DNA from: Dehalococcoidia bacterium
GTDB taxonomy: Bacteria; Chloroflexota; Dehalococcoidia; Lucifugimonadales; Australimonadaceae
Assembly (NCBI GenBank): GCA_965116015.1
Contig: OZ220477.1
Coordinates: 1,165,704 to 1,229,703 of the forward strand
Direction of reading: 5' to 3'
DNA length: 64,000 bases
The translations under genes and the position numbers were made by a program. The notes under the pieces were generated by a model, which was given only the letters and a program-made list of their open reading frames with translations, made no database searches and was not told where the DNA came from. The first letter of the stretch is position 1. Each line of letters opens with the position of its first letter. Below, piece after piece: positions 1,628 through 46,199 of the stretch.

Positions 1628-2809
1628 CTAGTCCGCCACCCGGAGCGCGCGCTGCGCAGCCGCCACCCCTGCCCCCGCCTGCGTCTCATAACCCTGACGC
1701 GCCACCGCATCCTCCAGAGCCCCCAGCAGCGTCAGCACATTCGCCCCCGTACTGTTATGACCCATCAACCCAACCCGCCACACCTTCCCCGCCAGCGGAC
1801 CCAAACCCCCGCTCACCTCAACCCCGTGCCCCTCCAGCATATGCCTGCGCGCCTCCCCCTCCTTCAACCCCTCAGGAGCAACCACCGCCATCAACGTCGG
1901 AACGCTCTCCTCCACATCCGCAACAACCCGCAAACCCATCGCCTCTACCCCAGCCCGAAACGCCGCCGCGCTCCGACGATGACGCTCCCACCGAGCCTCC
2001 AAACCCTCCTCAACGATCAACCGCAACGCCTCCCGCAGCGCATAGATCATCGATATCGGCGCCGTATGGTGATACGCCCGCCGATCCCAGTAACTCCCCA
2101 GCTCCGTCAGATCAAGATAAAAGCTCCGCACCGGCGTCGACCTCTTAAGCACAACATCCATCGCCCGAGAACTCATCGTCAGCGGAGCCAAACCCGGAGG
2201 AGCCCCCACGCACTTCTGCGTGCAGCTGTAGCACACATCCACACCCCACTCGTCCGTCCGGAACTCAACCCCCCCAAGCGACGTCACCGCATCCACAACC
2301 AGCAACGCCCCCGCCTCATGCGCAACCTCCGCCATCTCCCTAACAGGACTCCCAACCCCCGTCGACGTCTCAGCATGAACCATCCCCACAGCCTTCACCC
2401 CCCCCAAACCCGCAAGCGCCTCCCGAACACGCGCAGGCTCCGCCGGCCTCCCGAACTCATGCTCCACCGCCACAACATTCGCCCCGTTCCGCGACGCTAT
2501 CTCCCCCAAGCGCTCCCCGAAATACCCATTCACCGCCGCAACAAACGTATCCCCCGGCTCCAGAATATTCACCATCGCCGCTTCCATCCCCGCCGTCCCC
2601 GTCCCCGAAATCGGCAACGTAACCGCATTCTCCGTCTGGAACACATACCGCAGCATCTCCCGAACATCATCCATCGCCCCCAGAAAATGAGGATCCAGAT
2701 GCCCCAGCAGCGACGACCCCAGCGCGCGAAGCACCCGAGGGTCAACGTTCGCCGGCCCAGCCCCCATCAGCAACCGGCGCGGAGGAACAAACTCAGTACT
2801 CGTAGGCAT
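1628..2809 (-). CDS. class V aminotransferase (serine-pyruvate / alanine-glyoxylate aminotransferase-like)
   Basis: The translation shows typical AGXT/SPT-family blocks (LLMGAGPANVDPRVL, PISGTGTAGMEAA, CYSCTQKCVGAPPGLAP). The start is placed at the internal MPTSTEF (M16 of the tracked ORF). Codons end in G/T, i.e. the gene follows the local strand bias. Confidence 0.8.
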   Translation of the reverse strand: MPTSTEFVPPRRLLMGAGPANVDPRVLRALGSSLLGHLDPHFLGAMDDVREMLRYVFQTENAVTLPISGTGTAGMEAAMVNILEPGDTFVAAVNGYFGERLGEIASRNGANVVAVEHEFGRPAEPARVREALAGLGGVKAVGMVHAETSTGVGSPVREMAEVAHEAGALLVVDAVTSLGGVEFRTDEWGVDVCYSCTQKCVGAPPGLAPLTMSSRAMDVVLKRSTPVRSFYLDLTELGSYWDRRAYHHTAPISMIYALREALRLIVEEGLEARWERHRRSAAAFRAGVEAMGLRVVADVEESVPTLMAVVAPEGLKEGEARRHMLEGHGVEVSGGLGPLAGKVWRVGLMGHNSTGANVLTLLGALEDAVARQGYETQAGAGVAAAQRALRVAD

Positions 2810-3248
2810 AGTGCGGCTCTCGACTAAGTGAATTTGCGCCAGGCGGTCAACCAACGCCCCTCAGCGCACGCACAGAGAGGCCCCGCCCCGGCGCCGCCGC
2901 ATTATAGCAACGCAGAACCCTCGCCGCGCTCCCACGCTCCCCCAGACCGGGAACCCCTCGCCCTCCCCTGCCCACGCTAGAAGCAATCTTTTTACATAAC
3001 AACTTTTCGAACAAAAGAAAGTCCTTCTGCTCTCACGGCCAAGAGCAGCCAGCCCGCCCTCATCCCGATTTCACCCCTAAAACGCCTGTGTCTGCCTCCC
3101 TCAGGAAAACCCGCGCTAGGCCAAACCTTGCAGAATATTCCGAACAAATGCTATCTAAAATCATTGTTATATGCATATCCAGAGGGCTAGTGTTTACCCA
3201 TCACGCCCCAGCCGGGGCCGCCGACCTCGGAGAACCTCCCCCCAACCT

Positions 3249-14255: not shown

Positions 14256-14462
14256 CCTGGCCCTGTTCCAGCGCGTCGAACAAGCCCCGCCCGGTCCACG
14301 CCGACGCCCCCAACCTCACACGCCTCCTTATCGTCAAAACCACGACACTTACCCGTTGCGCAATAAGCGCTCTCGCCCCTACGCTATCACCTTGGGAAAC
14401 CGCCCCCCGAACGGGCAACCCGCCCCACCCCCGCCCCCGCAAACCCAAACCCAAGGAGGAGA

Positions 14463-14489
14463 ACGTTACGAAATGTTACAGAATGTTAC
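14463..14489 (+). promoter_or_regulatory. three 10-bp-phased (A)TGTTAC motifs overlapping the HTH gene start codon (candidate operator)
   Basis: aCGTTACgaaATGTTACagaATGTTACg. The same triple motif occurs in inverted orientation at 43184-43210. Confidence 0.5.
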
Positions 14490-16252: not shown

Positions 16253-16576
16253 ATGACCAGCGACTACCAGAAAACCGCCCACAGGAGCGACGTCAAACCC
16301 AACGAACTCCTCCTCGTCCAGGTCGGCGAACGCCAGATCCTCCTCACCGAACTCGATGGCCAAGTCATCGCCTTCGACAATATGTGCACCCACGAAGAAT
16401 GCGACCTCCTCTACGGCGCCATCGACGACATCAACGAGATCGAATGCGACTGCCACGGCGCCCGCTTCAACGTCCTCACCGGTGAAGTCGCAAGCCCCCC
16501 AGCCGAAATCCCCCTCCCCATCTACAACATCTCCGTCAACGACTCCTACGTCTACGTCGGCCCCCGCAAAAACTAA
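16253..16576 (+). CDS. Rieske [2Fe-2S] ferredoxin
   Basis: The C-T-H..C and C-D-C-H-G-A-R-F cluster-binding motifs are present. 107 aa. AGGAGA RBS. Confidence 0.85.
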   Translation: MTSDYQKTAHRSDVKPNELLLVQVGERQILLTELDGQVIAFDNMCTHEECDLLYGAIDDINEIECDCHGARFNVLTGEVASPPAEIPLPIYNISVNDSYVYVGPRKN

Positions 16577-16595
16577 CCCCCCCCCCCCCCCCCCC
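16577..16595 (+). repeat. homopolymer C19
   Basis: Nineteen consecutive C residues immediately after the Rieske gene's TAA stop. Confidence 0.95.
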
Positions 16596-16707: not shown

Positions 16708-16784
16708 CCGCCCGTAGCTCAGTGGAACAGAGCATCGGTCTTCGGAACCGAGGGTCGTGGGTTCGAATCCCGCCGGGCGGGCCA
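16708..16784 (+). tRNA. tRNA-Arg (TCG), CCA encoded
   Basis: Hand fold. Acceptor CCGCCCG/CGGGCGG, D-arm GCTC-AGTGGAACA-GAGC, anticodon stem TCGGT/ACCGA, loop CTTCGGA, T-arm GTGGG-TTCGAAT-CCCGC. Confidence 0.85.
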
Positions 16785-31318: not shown

Positions 31319-32839
31319 ATGGCGGAACAGAACTTCCCTGACAACGTCCTTTACGAACTCGACAACCTCGACGTCCTCCGGGGAATGAACAGCGAAACAG
31401 TCGACCTCATCGCCACCGACCCGCCGTTCAACACCCAGCGCAACAGGTCGGGAACCGCAGGGTTCTACGTCGACAACTGGAAGTGGGGCGACACCGGCAT
31501 CCTCCCCGACCAGTGGGCATGGAACGAGGTGCACCCCGTTTGGCTCGAACAGATCAAAGACGACAAACCAGCCCTCTACGAGGTCATCGACGCCGCGCGA
31601 GCCTGCCACGGAGAAGACATCGCCGCCTTCCTCTGCTTCCTCAGCGTCCGCCTCCTGGAGATGCACCGTGTGCTCAAGCCTGCCGGCAGCATCTACCTCC
31701 ATTGCGACCACACCGCCAACGCCTACATCCGAATGGCGATGGACGCTGTATTCGGCCCCAAGAATTTCCGGAACGAAATCGTCTGGAACTACCGACGATG
31801 GCCCGCTAAGTCGCGCAATTTCCAGCGGATGCATGACACTATCTACTGGTATTCGAAAGGAACAGAGTGGACATGGAACCAGCAGTACGAAGCCTTAGCG
31901 CCTTCCACACTTAAGGCGGACGGGGGAAAGAAGATTCTCAACGTGTTCGATGAGCACGGCCATCGGGTTCGAGGCGTTAAAACCGGTGAAGACTCTCCCG
32001 GCGCGCTAATGCGTTCTGTTTGGGACATAGGCTTCATCTCTCCTACGGCAAAAGAGCGCACCGGCTCCCCTGACCAAAAACCGCTCGCGCTGTACGAGCG
32101 GATAATCCTAGCGAGCAGCAACCCGGGCGACCTCGTGCTAGACCCGTTCGCGGGATGTGCAACCACAATCATCGCGGCGCGGAAGCACGGCAGGCGATGG
32201 GTGGGCGTCGACCGCCGCAAAGACGCAAGGTTTCACGTCGTGATGCGCATGATGGACATCAAGGCCAAAGACGCCGAACAACTCCGCAAGGAGCGCCCCG
32301 ACCTCAGCGCCTGGCTGGATGATCAGCTCTCCCGCTACGACGCGCACTACGCCATCGAGCCGCCCGAGCGAACAGACAGCGGCGAGCACGCGGCTCCCGA
32401 ACTTGAGCAAGTGTTCTTCCCCATTCGCGGCGAGCGGCAGCCTTGGCAGCGCCTCGCCCACGCCGAAATGCAGGGCGTCCTCAACCGCGTGCAAGCCGCG
32501 AGCGACGGCGCGCAGACGATCTGCGCCGGCTGCGGGCGAGAGCTCGAATGGCAGTTTATGGAGCTCGACCACATCACCCCGAGAGCCGACGGCGGCGAGA
32601 ACTACATCACCAACCGGGTAATGCTCTGCCGCCCATGCAACGGGAAGAAGAAACACAATCTCACCCTCTCCGGCCTGCGCCGGCAGAACCGGCAAGACGG
32701 CTGGATGAAGGACGAGCCAAAGGCCCAGACCGTCCTGATGACCGTCCAACGGCAAACGCAGAAGATGCGCGACTCCTGGTCGAGCCCCGACGTGCAGGCG
32801 CTCATCCTCTCCGTGCGCAGCCAGCAGCCGCAGACATAG
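31319..32839 (+). CDS. beta-class N6/N4 DNA methyltransferase fused to a C-terminal HNH endonuclease domain
   Basis: Motif IV TDPPFN near the N-terminus and motif I DPFAGCATT later (beta-class order). The C-terminus has CAGCG...DHITPRADGG..NRVMLCRPCNGKK (HNH). Confidence 0.85.
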   Translation: MAEQNFPDNVLYELDNLDVLRGMNSETVDLIATDPPFNTQRNRSGTAGFYVDNWKWGDTGILPDQWAWNEVHPVWLEQIKDDKPALYEVIDAARACHGEDIAAFLCFLSVRLLEMHRVLKPAGSIYLHCDHTANAYIRMAMDAVFGPKNFRNEIVWNYRRWPAKSRNFQRMHDTIYWYSKGTEWTWNQQYEALAPSTLKADGGKKILNVFDEHGHRVRGVKTGEDSPGALMRSVWDIGFISPTAKERTGSPDQKPLALYERIILASSNPGDLVLDPFAGCATTIIAARKHGRRWVGVDRRKDARFHVVMRMMDIKAKDAEQLRKERPDLSAWLDDQLSRYDAHYAIEPPERTDSGEHAAPELEQVFFPIRGERQPWQRLAHAEMQGVLNRVQAASDGAQTICAGCGRELEWQFMELDHITPRADGGENYITNRVMLCRPCNGKKKHNLTLSGLRRQNRQDGWMKDEPKAQTVLMTVQRQTQKMRDSWSSPDVQALILSVRSQQPQT

Positions 32840-42995: not shown

Positions 42996-43200
42996 CGCGC
43001 GCTCGCCGGAGCGCGTAATGCGATGCGGAGGGAGCGGGACGCGATGCCGGCTTGCCGCCGCTACGGTGCACGGCGATTCCATAACGGGAGGCGCTGCGAG
43101 CGGAGCCCGACGGCTCATGCCCATTGGCGTACGGCAATTCCTCGGAGAGAAGGGAGAGGGGGAATGGGAATTCTGTTGCAGGCGTAACATTTCGTAACAT
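42949..43200 (-). pseudogene. diverged/truncated homolog of the 14473 HTH gene
   Basis: Starts MLRNVTPA (compare MLQNVTPE at 14473), retains LS..LP....EP..GAR.A.R similarity, and runs into the convergent MFS gene end. Confidence 0.4.
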
Positions 43201-43210
43201 TAAGTAACAT
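43184..43210 (-). promoter_or_regulatory. three 10-bp-phased GTAACAT motifs (inverted copy of 14463-14489)
   Basis: GTAACAT at 43184, 43194 and 43204. Confidence 0.5.
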
Positions 43211-43551
43211 TCCCTTTGGGCCGAGGCGCTTCCCGGGAGAAGTTCGGGGCGGGGGGCTGAGTTGCCGCCAGGGCGATTCCCCGAGCGGACAGCTTAGGGG
43301 CGGGAGCGCATACCACGCAACGGGCGGATGCCAGCTTGCTCTCGCGGGCGCCGCGGACGCGCGGCGAGGAGCGGCTTGCGCATGAGCAGTGTTCTGGAGG
43401 GTTCCGTTTGATTGTAGATGGCTGAGATTCCATCCCCGTCACCTTTGATAGCAATCATCCAATGGATAGACGGCAAGCTCCTACCCCAATCAGGAGCTAA
43501 CAGCTGATAGGTGGTTCCTGATGGAATGATTAGCGAAAGGTATAATCCCTC

Positions 43552-43992
43552 TTAATAGCGGTCTTTGCCACTTGCGCCTGCACTGCGTTTACTGTATCCA
43601 TTATATAGCATGCCGATATCTATCCCACTGATTTGACCCAGCAATATTCCTAACGAGAAGAAAGCAAAATTATCCCAGAAAATTATCGACATCAATACCG
43701 TCATTGGAAGCAATACAAGCAAAGCTAAAACCCCATATCTCCGTTGTTTCTTTTCCCATTGGCTCCTCTGATCTCTCCACAACTGCAATATCCCTAGCAG
43801 CTCTCTTAGATATGTTTTCTCTCTGTATGGATGATACCAATCTATATAGATAGTTCTCCATAGCCTAAAGCATATCTGTATGGCAATCACTGCCACTCCT
43901 GAAATTATCAGTAGGTTAGTGCAAACGAGCATTGCATTGATAGTGCGTTTGATACGTTGCGTAACTGCACACTCCGTGATGTGAGATTTCAC
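43552..43992 (-). CDS. hypothetical 3-TM membrane protein in the low-GC island
   Basis: 146 aa with three hydrophobic segments. AT-rich codon usage is unlike the rest of the window. It lies 95 nt downstream of, and co-directional with, the MTase-HNH gene. Confidence 0.6.
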   Translation of the reverse strand: MKSHITECAVTQRIKRTINAMLVCTNLLIISGVAVIAIQICFRLWRTIYIDWYHPYREKTYLRELLGILQLWRDQRSQWEKKQRRYGVLALLVLLPMTVLMSIIFWDNFAFFSLGILLGQISGIDIGMLYNGYSKRSAGASGKDRY

Positions 43993-44046
43993 GCCATCAA
44001 GCTACCATAAACAGACAGTATTTGTCAATACCTTCCAAGTTTTAGG

Positions 44047-44064
44047 TTCCGTTTGCAAACGGAA
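44047..44064. repeat. perfect 18-bp palindrome TTCCGTTTGCAAACGGAA between the MTase-HNH and membrane-protein genes
   Basis: Read directly from the sequence. The half-site gttccgtttg recurs at 43401-43410. Confidence 0.9.
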
Positions 44065-44087
44065 TCTACTAGAGGGTGCGCTTTGCG

Positions 44088-45986
44088 CTATCCGAACCTG
44101 CCCTCGCGCTCGTACCAATCCCGCGTCCACGACGCGTTGATCATTCGTTCCTGTTTTATGCGCTCCCATCGCAGCTCAGCCAGGGTGAGTTTGTTGCCCT
44201 TCAAGCCATTGCATGGCGGACAGAGCAATACTCTGTTGCGTAATCCGTCATTTCCGCCTTTGGATTTAGGTTGCTTGTGGTCAACCTCAAGGTACTCGGA
44301 AAGTCCTTTCGGCGGGACATAGCCGCATCCCTGGCAGTAGCAGCCGTCGTCGACGCTTAGACGTTCACGTATTTCTCGCACGCTCATACGCTCGCTTTTT
44401 GGCTTAGGGCTCACTAGCACGAGCACTAGCTCCGGCGCCGCTTTCTCCCCGTCGTCAGTGCGCTTGGGCAGTTCAGATTTCACCGACACGGCTCTGTCCC
44501 ATGAGCTGGCTACGCTAGGCAGCTGCGCATGCTTCTGTAGTTGCCTCAGCATGACATCTTCCGCCTCTTTGTTAATGTCGATAGCTATCCACTCGCGCCC
44601 AAGCCGCTCAGCCCCAACGCAGGTAGTAGCGCACCCCGCGAATGGGTCTAGCACGATGTCGCCTTCGTTGCTGGATGCTTTGATGATGCGCTCGTACAGC
44701 GCAATTGGCTTTTGGGTTGGGTAGCCGGTGTACTCGCCAGCGCTAGCGTTGTAGTTGGTGAATCCTCGCGGCTCCAATATCAAGTTTTGCGGCAGGTTGC
44801 CGGTATCCGCCGCTGCGTAGCGTTTCAAACCAGGCCAGAAGCCTCTTGAGGGATGGACGACCAAGCCGGCATTATCGAGGGCGTCCAATCGTTCATGAAC
44901 GCCCGTCAACGATGTGTAGCCAGGAATGAATGTCCGCTCAATCCAGCGCGCGTAGTCAGATGATTTGGGAGGCGCCCAGCTTCTACCTCTAGCTGCGACA
45001 TCATACCCTTTCCAAGGCTGTCCTGATTCTCCAGTAGACGCGCTCGGCGCGGTCAGGTCGGAGAACCTGACCGCGCCGAGCGCGTCTAGTTGTGGGTAAG
45101 CAGTTTTGATCTCATCTTCAGTCTTGGGTGTGGCAACTGCATCGCCATTCCACGTGAATTTTTCAGATTTTGAGTAGTAGAGGATAGTGTCGGTGATATT
45201 GCCGTAGCCCTTTGCGTTGTTGTGGGCAGTGGCTCTGCGCCACGCAATCTGGCTTCTCATATTCCTCGGGCCGAAGATGGCGTCCATCATCGCGCGGATG
45301 TAGGAGTTAGCAGTATGGTCGCAGTGCAAGTAGAGGCTGCCTGCCGGCTTGAGGATGCGGCGCATCTCCAGGACGCGGACGCCCAGCCAGCACAGGAACG
45401 CGCCCATATCCTCGCCTGCGGCGGCGTTGGCGGCCTGTATGACGCTGTAGAGGTTCGGATGATCCTCTCGGATGCTCTCCGTCCACTCGGACTGGACATC
45501 CCCCCACGTCCATACGTCCGTGTAGCTGACCTTCTTTCCCGTTTTGTCGGCGCCGGCTGTGACAATGCCCTCGAACGCCTTCACGCCCTTGTTGAACGGA
45601 GGGTCGGTGGCGATGAGGTCGATGCTGTCTGAATTGATGCCCCGGAGTATCGGTAAGTTATCCCCGATGAATAGCGTACGGCTCTCAATGTTCAGGTTTG
45701 TAGTAGAATTGTTAGCCCGCTCGCCCGCTCGCCCGCTCGCCCGCTCGCCCGCTCGCCCGCTCGCCCGCTCGCCCGCTCGCCCGCTCGCCCGCTCGCCCGC
45801 TCGCCATCCTGCGCCTCCTTGCCTTATGAGCGCTTGGAACCCTACCACATAGGGGCATTGCCGACCGGAATCCTTGCCTTGATGCGACGCTAGAGTCAAT
45901 AGGCTTGTGTCGCGGGAGCGCGAACGGAGGGGACCCGCTGGCTCCCGCCTCCGGAGGAACGACGGCTCTTGTCGGTAGTCAGCCAT
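44088..45986 (-). CDS. beta-class N6/N4 DNA methyltransferase-HNH endonuclease fusion (paralog of 31319..32839) with a repeat-encoded N-terminal extension
   Basis: TDPPFN, DPFAGCATT, and the C-terminal CQGCG...DHKQPKSKGG..NRVLLCPPCNGLKGNK. The ORF is open to the ATG at 45986, passing through the (GERASGRA)n repeat. An alternative SD+ATG at 45807 is out of frame. Confidence 0.8.
   Translation of the reverse strand: MADYRQEPSFLRRREPAGPLRSRSRDTSLLTLASHQGKDSGRQCPYVVGFQALIRQGGAGWRAGERASGRAGERASGRAGERASGRAGERANNSTTNLNIESRTLFIGDNLPILRGINSDSIDLIATDPPFNKGVKAFEGIVTAGADKTGKKVSYTDVWTWGDVQSEWTESIREDHPNLYSVIQAANAAAGEDMGAFLCWLGVRVLEMRRILKPAGSLYLHCDHTANSYIRAMMDAIFGPRNMRSQIAWRRATAHNNAKGYGNITDTILYYSKSEKFTWNGDAVATPKTEDEIKTAYPQLDALGAVRFSDLTAPSASTGESGQPWKGYDVAARGRSWAPPKSSDYARWIERTFIPGYTSLTGVHERLDALDNAGLVVHPSRGFWPGLKRYAAADTGNLPQNLILEPRGFTNYNASAGEYTGYPTQKPIALYERIIKASSNEGDIVLDPFAGCATTCVGAERLGREWIAIDINKEAEDVMLRQLQKHAQLPSVASSWDRAVSVKSELPKRTDDGEKAAPELVLVLVSPKPKSERMSVREIRERLSVDDGCYCQGCGYVPPKGLSEYLEVDHKQPKSKGGNDGLRNRVLLCPPCNGLKGNKLTLAELRWERIKQERMINASWTRDWYEREGRFG
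45715..45802 (-). repeat. octanucleotide tandem repeat (GCCCGCTC)x11 inside the 5' end of the MTase-HNH ORF
   Basis: Eleven perfect 8-bp units were counted, 88 bp in total. Confidence 0.95.
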
Positions 45987-46039
45987 CGTCCTGCTCCACG
46001 CCGCACCGCGCGTGCGCGCCTTGTTCGCTCTTGGGCGGC

Positions 46040-46160
46040 TCTGCTAGAATCGGGGCCTGCGCCGACATCTACCGGGAGCTGGGTGAAACCCGGCTGAGAG
46101 GCTCCGCAGCTACGGGGCGACCGGCAACCTGATCTGGGTAATGCCAGCGGAGGGAATCTG
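46040..46160 (+). promoter_or_regulatory. TPP (THI-box) riboswitch
   Basis: Conserved cugaga (46094-46099) and accugaucugg(g)uaaugccagcg (46127-46149). Located upstream of thiG. Confidence 0.85.
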
Positions 46161-46199
46161 CAAAGACCGCTCCTCCGCCGAAAGCAGGGCGGTCTTTTT
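46161..46199 (+). terminator. intrinsic terminator forming the riboswitch expression platform
   Basis: 9-bp stem aaagaccgc/gcggtcttt, followed by and overlapping a T5 run. Confidence 0.7.

Follow-up and report, generated by a model that had tools for sequence, protein, structure and literature searches.

The window analysed here is a stretch of 64,000 nucleotides (nt) from contig OZ220477.1 (assembly GCA_965116015.1, positions 1,165,704 to 1,229,703 of the forward strand) of a Dehalococcoidia bacterium from the Chloroflexota, and all positions below are counted from its first nucleotide. It contains a gene encoding a methyltransferase domain followed by an HNH nuclease domain, and a perfect octanucleotide repeat crosses the 5' end of this gene. 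We conclude that the tract is probably a slipped-strand (contingency) switch, which acts at the level of translation on a horizontally acquired gene for a single-polypeptide methyltransferase-HNH enzyme. A preliminary description, made from the DNA letters alone, had already suggested the architecture of a slipped-strand phase-variable methyltransferase. This suggestion finds support in the lack of a start codon that would bypass the tract, in non-triplet repeats that occupy the same place in relatives, and in orthologues that are free of the tract.

Anatomy and reading frames of the octanucleotide tract

The tract occupies positions 45715..45805 on the minus strand, inside the 5' end of the methyltransferase-HNH open reading frame (ORF), where a repeat of 11 units had been described before. 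Tandem Repeats Finder (TRF) reports it with a period of 8, 11.4 copies, 100% matches, no indels and a score of 182, as compared to a score of 70 for the runner-up array of the window; a script check of unit and length and a unique back-translation complete the assignment. Words of two units, allowing at most one mismatch, occur 11 times in the window with 10 of the 11 inside the tract, compared to an expected number of 0.07, and none of 100 shuffles of the window matched this count. The unit reads GCCCGCTC on the plus strand and GGCGAGCG on the gene (minus) strand, where the tract runs as (GGCGAGCG)x11 followed by GGC (i.e., 11 full units and 3 nt) and then TAA. No sense frame of the unit contains a stop codon and, as 8 and 3 have no common factor, every frame of the tract yields the cyclic peptide GERASGRA.

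The same octamer, in at least four units, was also found in 102 metagenome and 4 viral contigs (L082-L187) with a G+C content of 0.37-0.76, often near contig ends or just 5' of unrelated ORFs. None of these contigs carried the flanks of the tract in the window, encoded a relative or was linked to a methylase.

Downstream of the tract lies the methyltransferase-HNH core, which comprises 541 codons and a stop (44088..45713, minus strand) and was delimited by Pfam, PADLOC, relatives of known structure and an N-terminal alignment. Upstream, the order on the minus strand is AAGGAGG(45820-45814)-cgcagg-ATG(45807-45805)-tract-TAA(45714-45712). Here, AAGGAGG is a Shine-Dalgarno-like (SD) element 6 nt 5' of the proximal ATG, as previously stated, the tract begins with the G of this ATG, and the TAA closes the proximal frame just past the tract in the 11-unit state. 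Beyond the proximal start extends an upstream leader (45808..45986, minus strand) with a distal ATG at 45986-45984, a GGAG (45997-45994) 7 nt 5' of it, and an in-frame GTG at 45848-45846.

The reading frames were simulated for tracts of 5 to 17 units. Translation from the proximal ATG continues into the core at 6, 9, 12 and 15 units and from the distal ATG at 5, 8, 11, 14 and 17 units, while at 7, 10, 13 and 16 units neither start is in frame with it. Adding or removing one unit shifts the frame of the core, since 8 is no multiple of 3. The simulation agrees with the arithmetic of the preliminary description, which had placed ATG 45807 in frame at 9 or 12 units and out of frame at 11. At the sequenced 11 units, the product of ATG 45807 is only 31 amino acids (aa) long, and it ends, again as claimed, at the TAA directly after the tract. 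The ORF from the distal ATG (44088..45986, minus strand, 632 codons) is open at this unit number and crosses the tract as the (GERASGRA)n extension that had been read from it.

Could translation start downstream of the tract and thereby bypass it? This objection had been raised in the preliminary description, and the core frame offers no such start, since no ATG, GTG or TTG follows the tract in this frame until the DPPF motif of the methylase is reached. In our N-terminal alignment, nine tract-free homologues share a column with the initiator methionine, 7 or 8 residues before a conserved R-T-L-F, which is occupied by threonine in the gene of the window and by tyrosine and glycine in the other two repeat-bearing genes (see below). 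Judging from this alignment, the core 44088..45713 has lost its own ancestral start codon. With no start after the tract and the ancestral methionine replaced by threonine, expression of the core must cross the tract, and it is the loss of the ancestral start that makes the 5' repeat an effective switch. The locus thus combines two of the properties expected of a contingency locus, an uninterrupted non-triplet 5' repeat and frame toggling with no bypass start.

We propose the following mechanism. Slipped-strand mispairing at replication would change the number of units. Ribosomes would start at ATG 45807 after AAGGAGG and read through (GGCGAGCG)n into the core. With n = 9, 12 or 15 the gene would be ON and yield a complete enzyme carrying a short (GERASGRA)n tail at its N-terminus, and with n = 10, 11, 13 or 14 a peptide of 31-43 aa would be made instead and the enzyme would be absent. 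In the ON state, the genome would be methylated at the motif of the enzyme, and unmodified incoming DNA would presumably be cut by the HNH domain; as methylase and nuclease reside in one polypeptide, both would be switched together. Tract length would vary in the population, giving rise to subpopulations with distinct genome methylation and presumably also distinct restriction of incoming DNA, and a downstream effect on gene expression (i.e., a regulon) may follow. As 11 units are out of frame from ATG 45807, which would be the start used, the sequenced state appears to be OFF; should transcripts extend to the distal ATG, it could be weakly ON at best. Use of the distal ATG would result in three expression levels, as in licA of Haemophilus.

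The enzyme, its relatives and their 5' repeats

Within the protein, the family N6_N4_Mtase (PF01555) matches residues 122-477 (~44556-45623) with an E-value of 1.2e-41, and a C-terminal zinc-finger HNH domain (PF01844) matches residues 551-599 (~44190-44336) with an E-value of 4.5e-10. The methylase motifs are intact and follow the order DPPF, variable middle, DPFAGCATT. The relatives with solved structures in the PDB are CcrM, MboIIA and RsrI, and together with the motif order they identify a beta-class amino-methyltransferase (N6/N4). Thus, PF01555 and both motifs predict the catalytically intact methyltransferase that a phasevarion calls for. The HNH residues CxxC...DH...N...CxxC...N are present as well, and the domain resembles HNH domains of the IscB/Cas9 type. 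PADLOC assigns MTase_II as the best model (E 2e-47), with MTase_III scoring weaker (E 1e-29). The neighbours are, downstream, a 146-aa ORF with no family match and then a major facilitator superfamily (MFS) transporter, and, divergently, a putative thiamine pyrophosphate (TPP) riboswitch with thiG-thiE/S; none of them is res-like. As Type II profiles score best and no res gene is adjacent, we do not count the enzyme among the Type III Mod proteins. Judging from its domains, it is a single-chain methyltransferase-HNH with nuclease and methyltransferase in one polypeptide, as in single-chain restriction-modification enzymes (Type IIC/IIG in the broad sense), and it may be active as both methylase and nuclease.

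The gene lies on an island of low G+C content (43000..46000) together with the 146-aa ORF. The G+C profile drops to 0.52-0.61 between 43.0 and 46.0 kb, compared to ~0.66-0.69 in the flanks, and the G+C content by codon position of the core is 0.56 (GC1), 0.47 (GC2) and 0.68 (GC3), with host genes showing a GC3 of 0.79-0.83. The low G+C content of the island and the lower GC3 suggest that the gene was probably acquired horizontally. None of the relatives examined shared synteny with the window.

The accompanying 146-aa ORF (43552-43992, minus strand) encodes a hydrophobic protein, has a G+C content of 0.41, and sits just 3' of the methyltransferase-HNH gene; a TTGACA-like site precedes the ORF. 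No Pfam, NCBIfam or PADLOC model was matched, and the ORF was not found beside relatives.

A paralogous methyltransferase-HNH gene with 35% identity and no repeat is located at 31319..32839 on the plus strand. Its residue 5 aligns with residue 99 of the long ORF, so that, as noted before, it begins about where the tract ends. The 120 closest database proteins tell the same story: most of them are 420-560 aa long and start right at the core, and the best non-self match is 67% identical over 84-85% of the query, which is all but the first 98 residues. No close relative of the methylase-HNH protein was found in viral contigs. The two closest orthologues for which DNA is available (L188 and L189, 63-67% identity) have no tract, which argues that the SD-ATG-repeat module was added in this lineage and bears out the earlier idea of an added switch.

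One of these orthologues, L188, is preceded by a divergent 76-aa gene of the Xre-type helix-turn-helix (HTH) family (2696-2926, minus strand; PF01381, E 1.8e-17), and the intergenic region that it shares with this gene contains direct repeats of CATAGACTAT at 2950-2985. By analogy, the HTH gene and the repeats resemble the controller protein and operator of restriction-modification systems, which may be taken as an indirect hint that site-specific cleavage is blocked by the enzyme's own methylation, as may the uncoupling of HNH and methylase by the C14 tract of L071 (see below).

Two relatives carry other non-triplet repeats at the same place. The first is a second methylase-HNH paralog known as a protein sequence (P0006), in which QRNATx5 immediately precedes the core at the same position. 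Of all pentanucleotide units, CAACG alone can encode this peptide repeat, and no more than 0.025% of 5-aa peptides are possible products of any 5-nt unit. P0006 and the protein of the window are presumably encoded on the same chromosome; as the window contains no (CAACG)n tract, the P0006 locus must lie elsewhere. The two proteins are 72% identical in their C-terminal block and highly similar in their N-terminal catalytic block, with a different middle; mod alleles that differ in specificity show the same pattern at the level of sequence. The second relative (P0113 at locus L081) has the arrangement GGGAGGG-N7-ATG, 14 codons, (GGGCAGCC)x6.75 and core, all in frame. Judged by its unit, this is a second, unrelated octamer at the 5' end of the core. 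A scan for peptide repeats among 150 more distant representatives revealed N-terminal poly-G or poly-P in P0135, P0178 and P0180 only, as well as one 15-nt duplication.

A survey of the family in one genome per species gave 80 loci and 624 kb, all from Chloroflexota metagenome-assembled genomes. These belong to Dehalococcoidia, Phototrophicaceae, Aggregatilineales and Anaerolineae and contain up to four paralogs per chromosome. Long simple repeats were defined as homopolymers of at least 9 nt, or as four or more copies that together cover 20 nt or more. Of 15 such repeats, 11 are located at -207..-18 nt from the core start, within a section that makes up 3.2% of the DNA (binomial P = 4.5e-14), and looser thresholds gave a repeat density of 0.80 per kb there vs 0.14 per kb elsewhere. 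About 14% of the 80 loci carry a 5' repeat, a proportion similar to that of Type III mod genes, for which 17.4% has been reported (PMC5909438).

The 11 repeats differ in their position relative to the start. Three are homopolymers inside the ORF with no start after them, two of which are out of frame (L005, L035) and one in frame (L065). Seven lie 5' of the SD and start, and for the remaining one (L056) no start could be assigned. Among the seven, five consist of poly-C with n = 9, 9, 17, 15 and 11 (L034, L066, L068, L074 and L075, respectively) followed by GAATNNATGTTCTA, 75-207 nt 5' of the core start, and the other two are C12 and (CA)30. The conserved module of poly-C and GAATNNATGTTCTA looks like a promoter with a hypermutable spacer. 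A different position is taken by the C14 tract of L071 (5202-5215), which encodes the prolines of a conserved PPxRTD linker that joins the methylase domain to the HNH. As sequenced, the methylase frame closes a short distance past C14 and the HNH lies in another frame, so this tract could be a switch between a methylase-only and a methylase-nuclease form.

Several of the relatives have bin or sample names that suggest sponge metagenomes, and sponge symbionts are enriched in restriction-modification genes (PMC8163846). It is possible, and we put it forward tentatively, that Chloroflexota genomes keep several paralogs, each under its own hypermutable repeat, in three modes: 5' coding repeats (8-nt, 5-nt, poly-G/C) combined with start loss, the promoter-like module of poly-C and GAATNNATGTTCTA, and interdomain poly-C that uncouples the HNH. 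Such an arrangement would provide uncultured symbionts with a combinatorial stochastic methylome and defence comparable to those of host-adapted pathogens.

Alternative explanations and further features of the window

The best surviving alternative is that the gene is dead or dying, with repeat expansion and start loss having inactivated a foreign gene and the tract being left as a mutational scar. The only available sequence is indeed out of frame from the best start, the gene resides on the low-GC island, and two relatives show possible damage (a CTG at the start position of L034 and the out-of-frame HNH of L071). However, 541 stop-free codons with all catalytic motifs intact follow the tract, and its eleven perfect units have not suffered a single substitution, which points to ongoing slippage or a very recent expansion. 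Moreover, independent repeat-bearing relatives are in frame (L081, L065, P0006), and the strong family-wide enrichment of 5' repeats is hard to account for by decay. We therefore regard this explanation as unlikely.

Slightly less likely still is that the 632-aa ORF from the distal ATG represents a real, constitutive protein, in which the repeat serves as a tolerated low-complexity linker at the N-terminus. This ORF is open from 45986 to 44088 at 11 units, its ATG is preceded by the GGAG at 7 nt, and gene callers picked it (P0001). Nevertheless, its 98-aa N-terminal extension has no counterpart among the 120 closest database proteins, and the 60-codon leader of the distal ATG is conserved in no homologue and thus unique to this gene. 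The position of the distal ATG also speaks against it. A promoter-like TTGTTC (46021-46026)-N18-TAGAAT (46045-46050) belongs to the divergent riboswitch/thiG operon, and with its -35-like element only 35 nt from the distal ATG, a separate promoter for this start would have little space. In addition, a neutral linker would not be expected to consist of perfect non-triplet units whose first base belongs to an ATG preceded by an SD, nor to recur in the same architecture with other non-triplet units in relatives. The distal ATG is thus doubtful as a normal start, and the present frame has probably misled gene finders into calling the long ORF. Of the two alternative SD/ATG starts put forward in the preliminary description, the distal one is in frame at 11 units as claimed but, given its unique leader and the cramped promoter space, is probably not a normal start. 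By eye, an extended -10-like site, TGgTAGGGT (45847-45839), suggests itself as a candidate promoter, from which transcription would begin 3' of the distal ATG and 5' of AAGGAGG.

A wrong repeat count in the assembly, by consensus or collapse error, would mean that the true ON/OFF state is different or mixed. Tandem repeats are error-prone in assemblies and only a single assembly is at hand, yet the 91-nt tract is shorter than typical reads and perfectly regular with clean flanks, and we consider a miscount very unlikely; it would in any case alter the state of the switch and not its nature. Least probable is a graded, length-dependent tuning of translation or transcription, independent of frame, by a hairpin or G-rich structure after the start codon: the tract alone is predicted to form an imperfect hairpin (-34.4 kcal/mol) and both GGCGAGCG and the GGGCAGCC of L081 are compatible with a G3N5 pattern, but the predicted optimum is the same with G-quadruplex energies switched on, so that a G-quadruplex is not favoured, the CAACG unit of the paralog and the homopolymers of relatives lack this property, and the frame effect is present regardless.

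Several points weigh against a phase-variable switch at this locus. The consensus is OFF for the proximal start, as a decaying gene would also show. No database protein is more than 67% identical, no metagenome contig has the same flanks, and length variation of the tract is a prediction. A sigma-70 consensus scan lists no promoter for the methyltransferase-HNH gene, and the site at 45847-45839 is not listed either. A coding leader and a non-coding one cannot be told apart by codon-position G+C content. Finally, AAGGAGG-N6-ATG is statistically unremarkable in this G+C-rich window, in which AGGAGG occurs 88 times with a start codon 4-10 nt away in 28 cases; its geometry is good, but not decisive.

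Next to the methyltransferase-HNH gene, the putative TPP riboswitch of the divergent thiG-thiE/thiS operon is found at 46065..46172 on the plus strand (Rfam RF00059). The full model is covered with an E-value of 3.3e-8; as its 46.9 bits remain below the gathering score of 54.3, the riboswitch is invisible at default thresholds and was found by an E-value threshold. It lies 49 nt 5' of thiG (46221), with a terminator at 46175-46192 in between.

Elsewhere in the window, a C19 homopolymer (16577-16595) directly follows the stop of an ORF ending at 16576, ~110 nt 5' of a tRNA-Arg (16708-16784). No long simple repeat apart from this one and the octanucleotide tract occurs in the window, and the homopolymer could likewise be hypermutable. 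Two arrays of three 10-nt direct repeats each are present at 14460-14489 (plus strand) and 43183-43211 (minus strand), in inverted orientation and 28.7 kb apart. The repeats are (A/G)A(A/C)(T/G)TTAC-like with the core ATGTTAC (4 matches vs 0 expected), and each array overlaps an ATG; the first follows an AAGGAGG and the second borders the low-GC island. This motif was absent from all 190 loci compared. Furthermore, positions 1-21000 show a GC skew of ~ -0.4 and a positive AT skew on the plus strand, on which the long ORFs of this part are encoded. Sequence sampled around position 16.8 kb is rich in C-ending codons, a bias that the island gene does not have.

Comparison with known phase-variable systems

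The closest parallel is provided by the phase-variable mod genes of Type III, which likewise encode a beta-class amino-methyltransferase with a non-triplet repeat in the 5' coding region and are turned ON and OFF by a change in unit number. As in mod genes, conserved N- and C-terminal blocks surround a variable middle between paralogs, and several such genes may be present per genome. Unlike them, the gene of the window has no adjacent res, its nuclease is a fused C-terminal HNH, and Type II models fit best. The repeat units differ as well, being 1, 4 or 5 nt long in the usual mod genes and 8 nt here, and the host is an uncultured member of the Chloroflexota.

A joint switch of nuclease and methyltransferase is known from Cj0031 of Campylobacter jejuni, a phase-variable Type IIG enzyme in which a repeat switches both activities and thereby changes methylation and phage restriction (PMC4889913). 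The gene of the window, as predicted from its sequence, similarly unites nuclease and methyltransferase under a simple repeat, but here the unit has 8 nt and the tract sits at the very 5' end. The order of the domains, with the methyltransferase first and the HNH last, appears to differ from the Type IIG architecture.

For the arrangement of the starts, licA (lic1) of Haemophilus influenzae serves as the precedent. Its (CAAT)n repeat has initiation codons in two frames, and the use of both starts was shown experimentally (PMC2212159). In both genes the repeat comes right after alternative starts in two of three frames, resulting in two ON classes and one OFF class. However, licA has a tetranucleotide repeat in a choline kinase gene, and the distal start of the gene in the window is doubtful.

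Outside Type III, simple repeats in restriction-modification genes have been described in two further settings. A survey of Type I hsdM/hsdS genes used selection criteria that admit octanucleotide units (PMC7383803), and for Metamycoplasma hominis the DCM8/DAM3 Type II fusion with its (TA)n repeat was presented as the first case of a Type II methyltransferase with phase variants (PMC10305163). The tract described here shares with them its occurrence in a restriction-modification gene outside Type III; their enzymes are built differently, their repeats are internal or in the target recognition domain (TRD), and none belongs to a methyltransferase-HNH fusion. Phase-variable Type II-like methyltransferases have scarcely been documented and are described as rare (PMC13076061, PMC10305163). 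A literature search under four names for the methylase-HNH fusion returned no paper using any of them.

If our interpretation is correct, environmental and symbiotic bacteria rich in restriction-modification genes (PMC8163846) would use stochastic heterogeneity, both epigenetic and in defence, as a general strategy. Long-read metagenomes would then hold readable ON and OFF subpopulations, with repeat count and methylation recorded on the same molecule. Most of the established cases of repeat-driven methyltransferase switching are Type III and Type I systems from host-adapted pathogens, and the locus in the window would extend the same logic to a single-chain methylase-HNH enzyme with an unusual 8-nt unit, in an uncultured member of the Chloroflexota and recurrent within its family.

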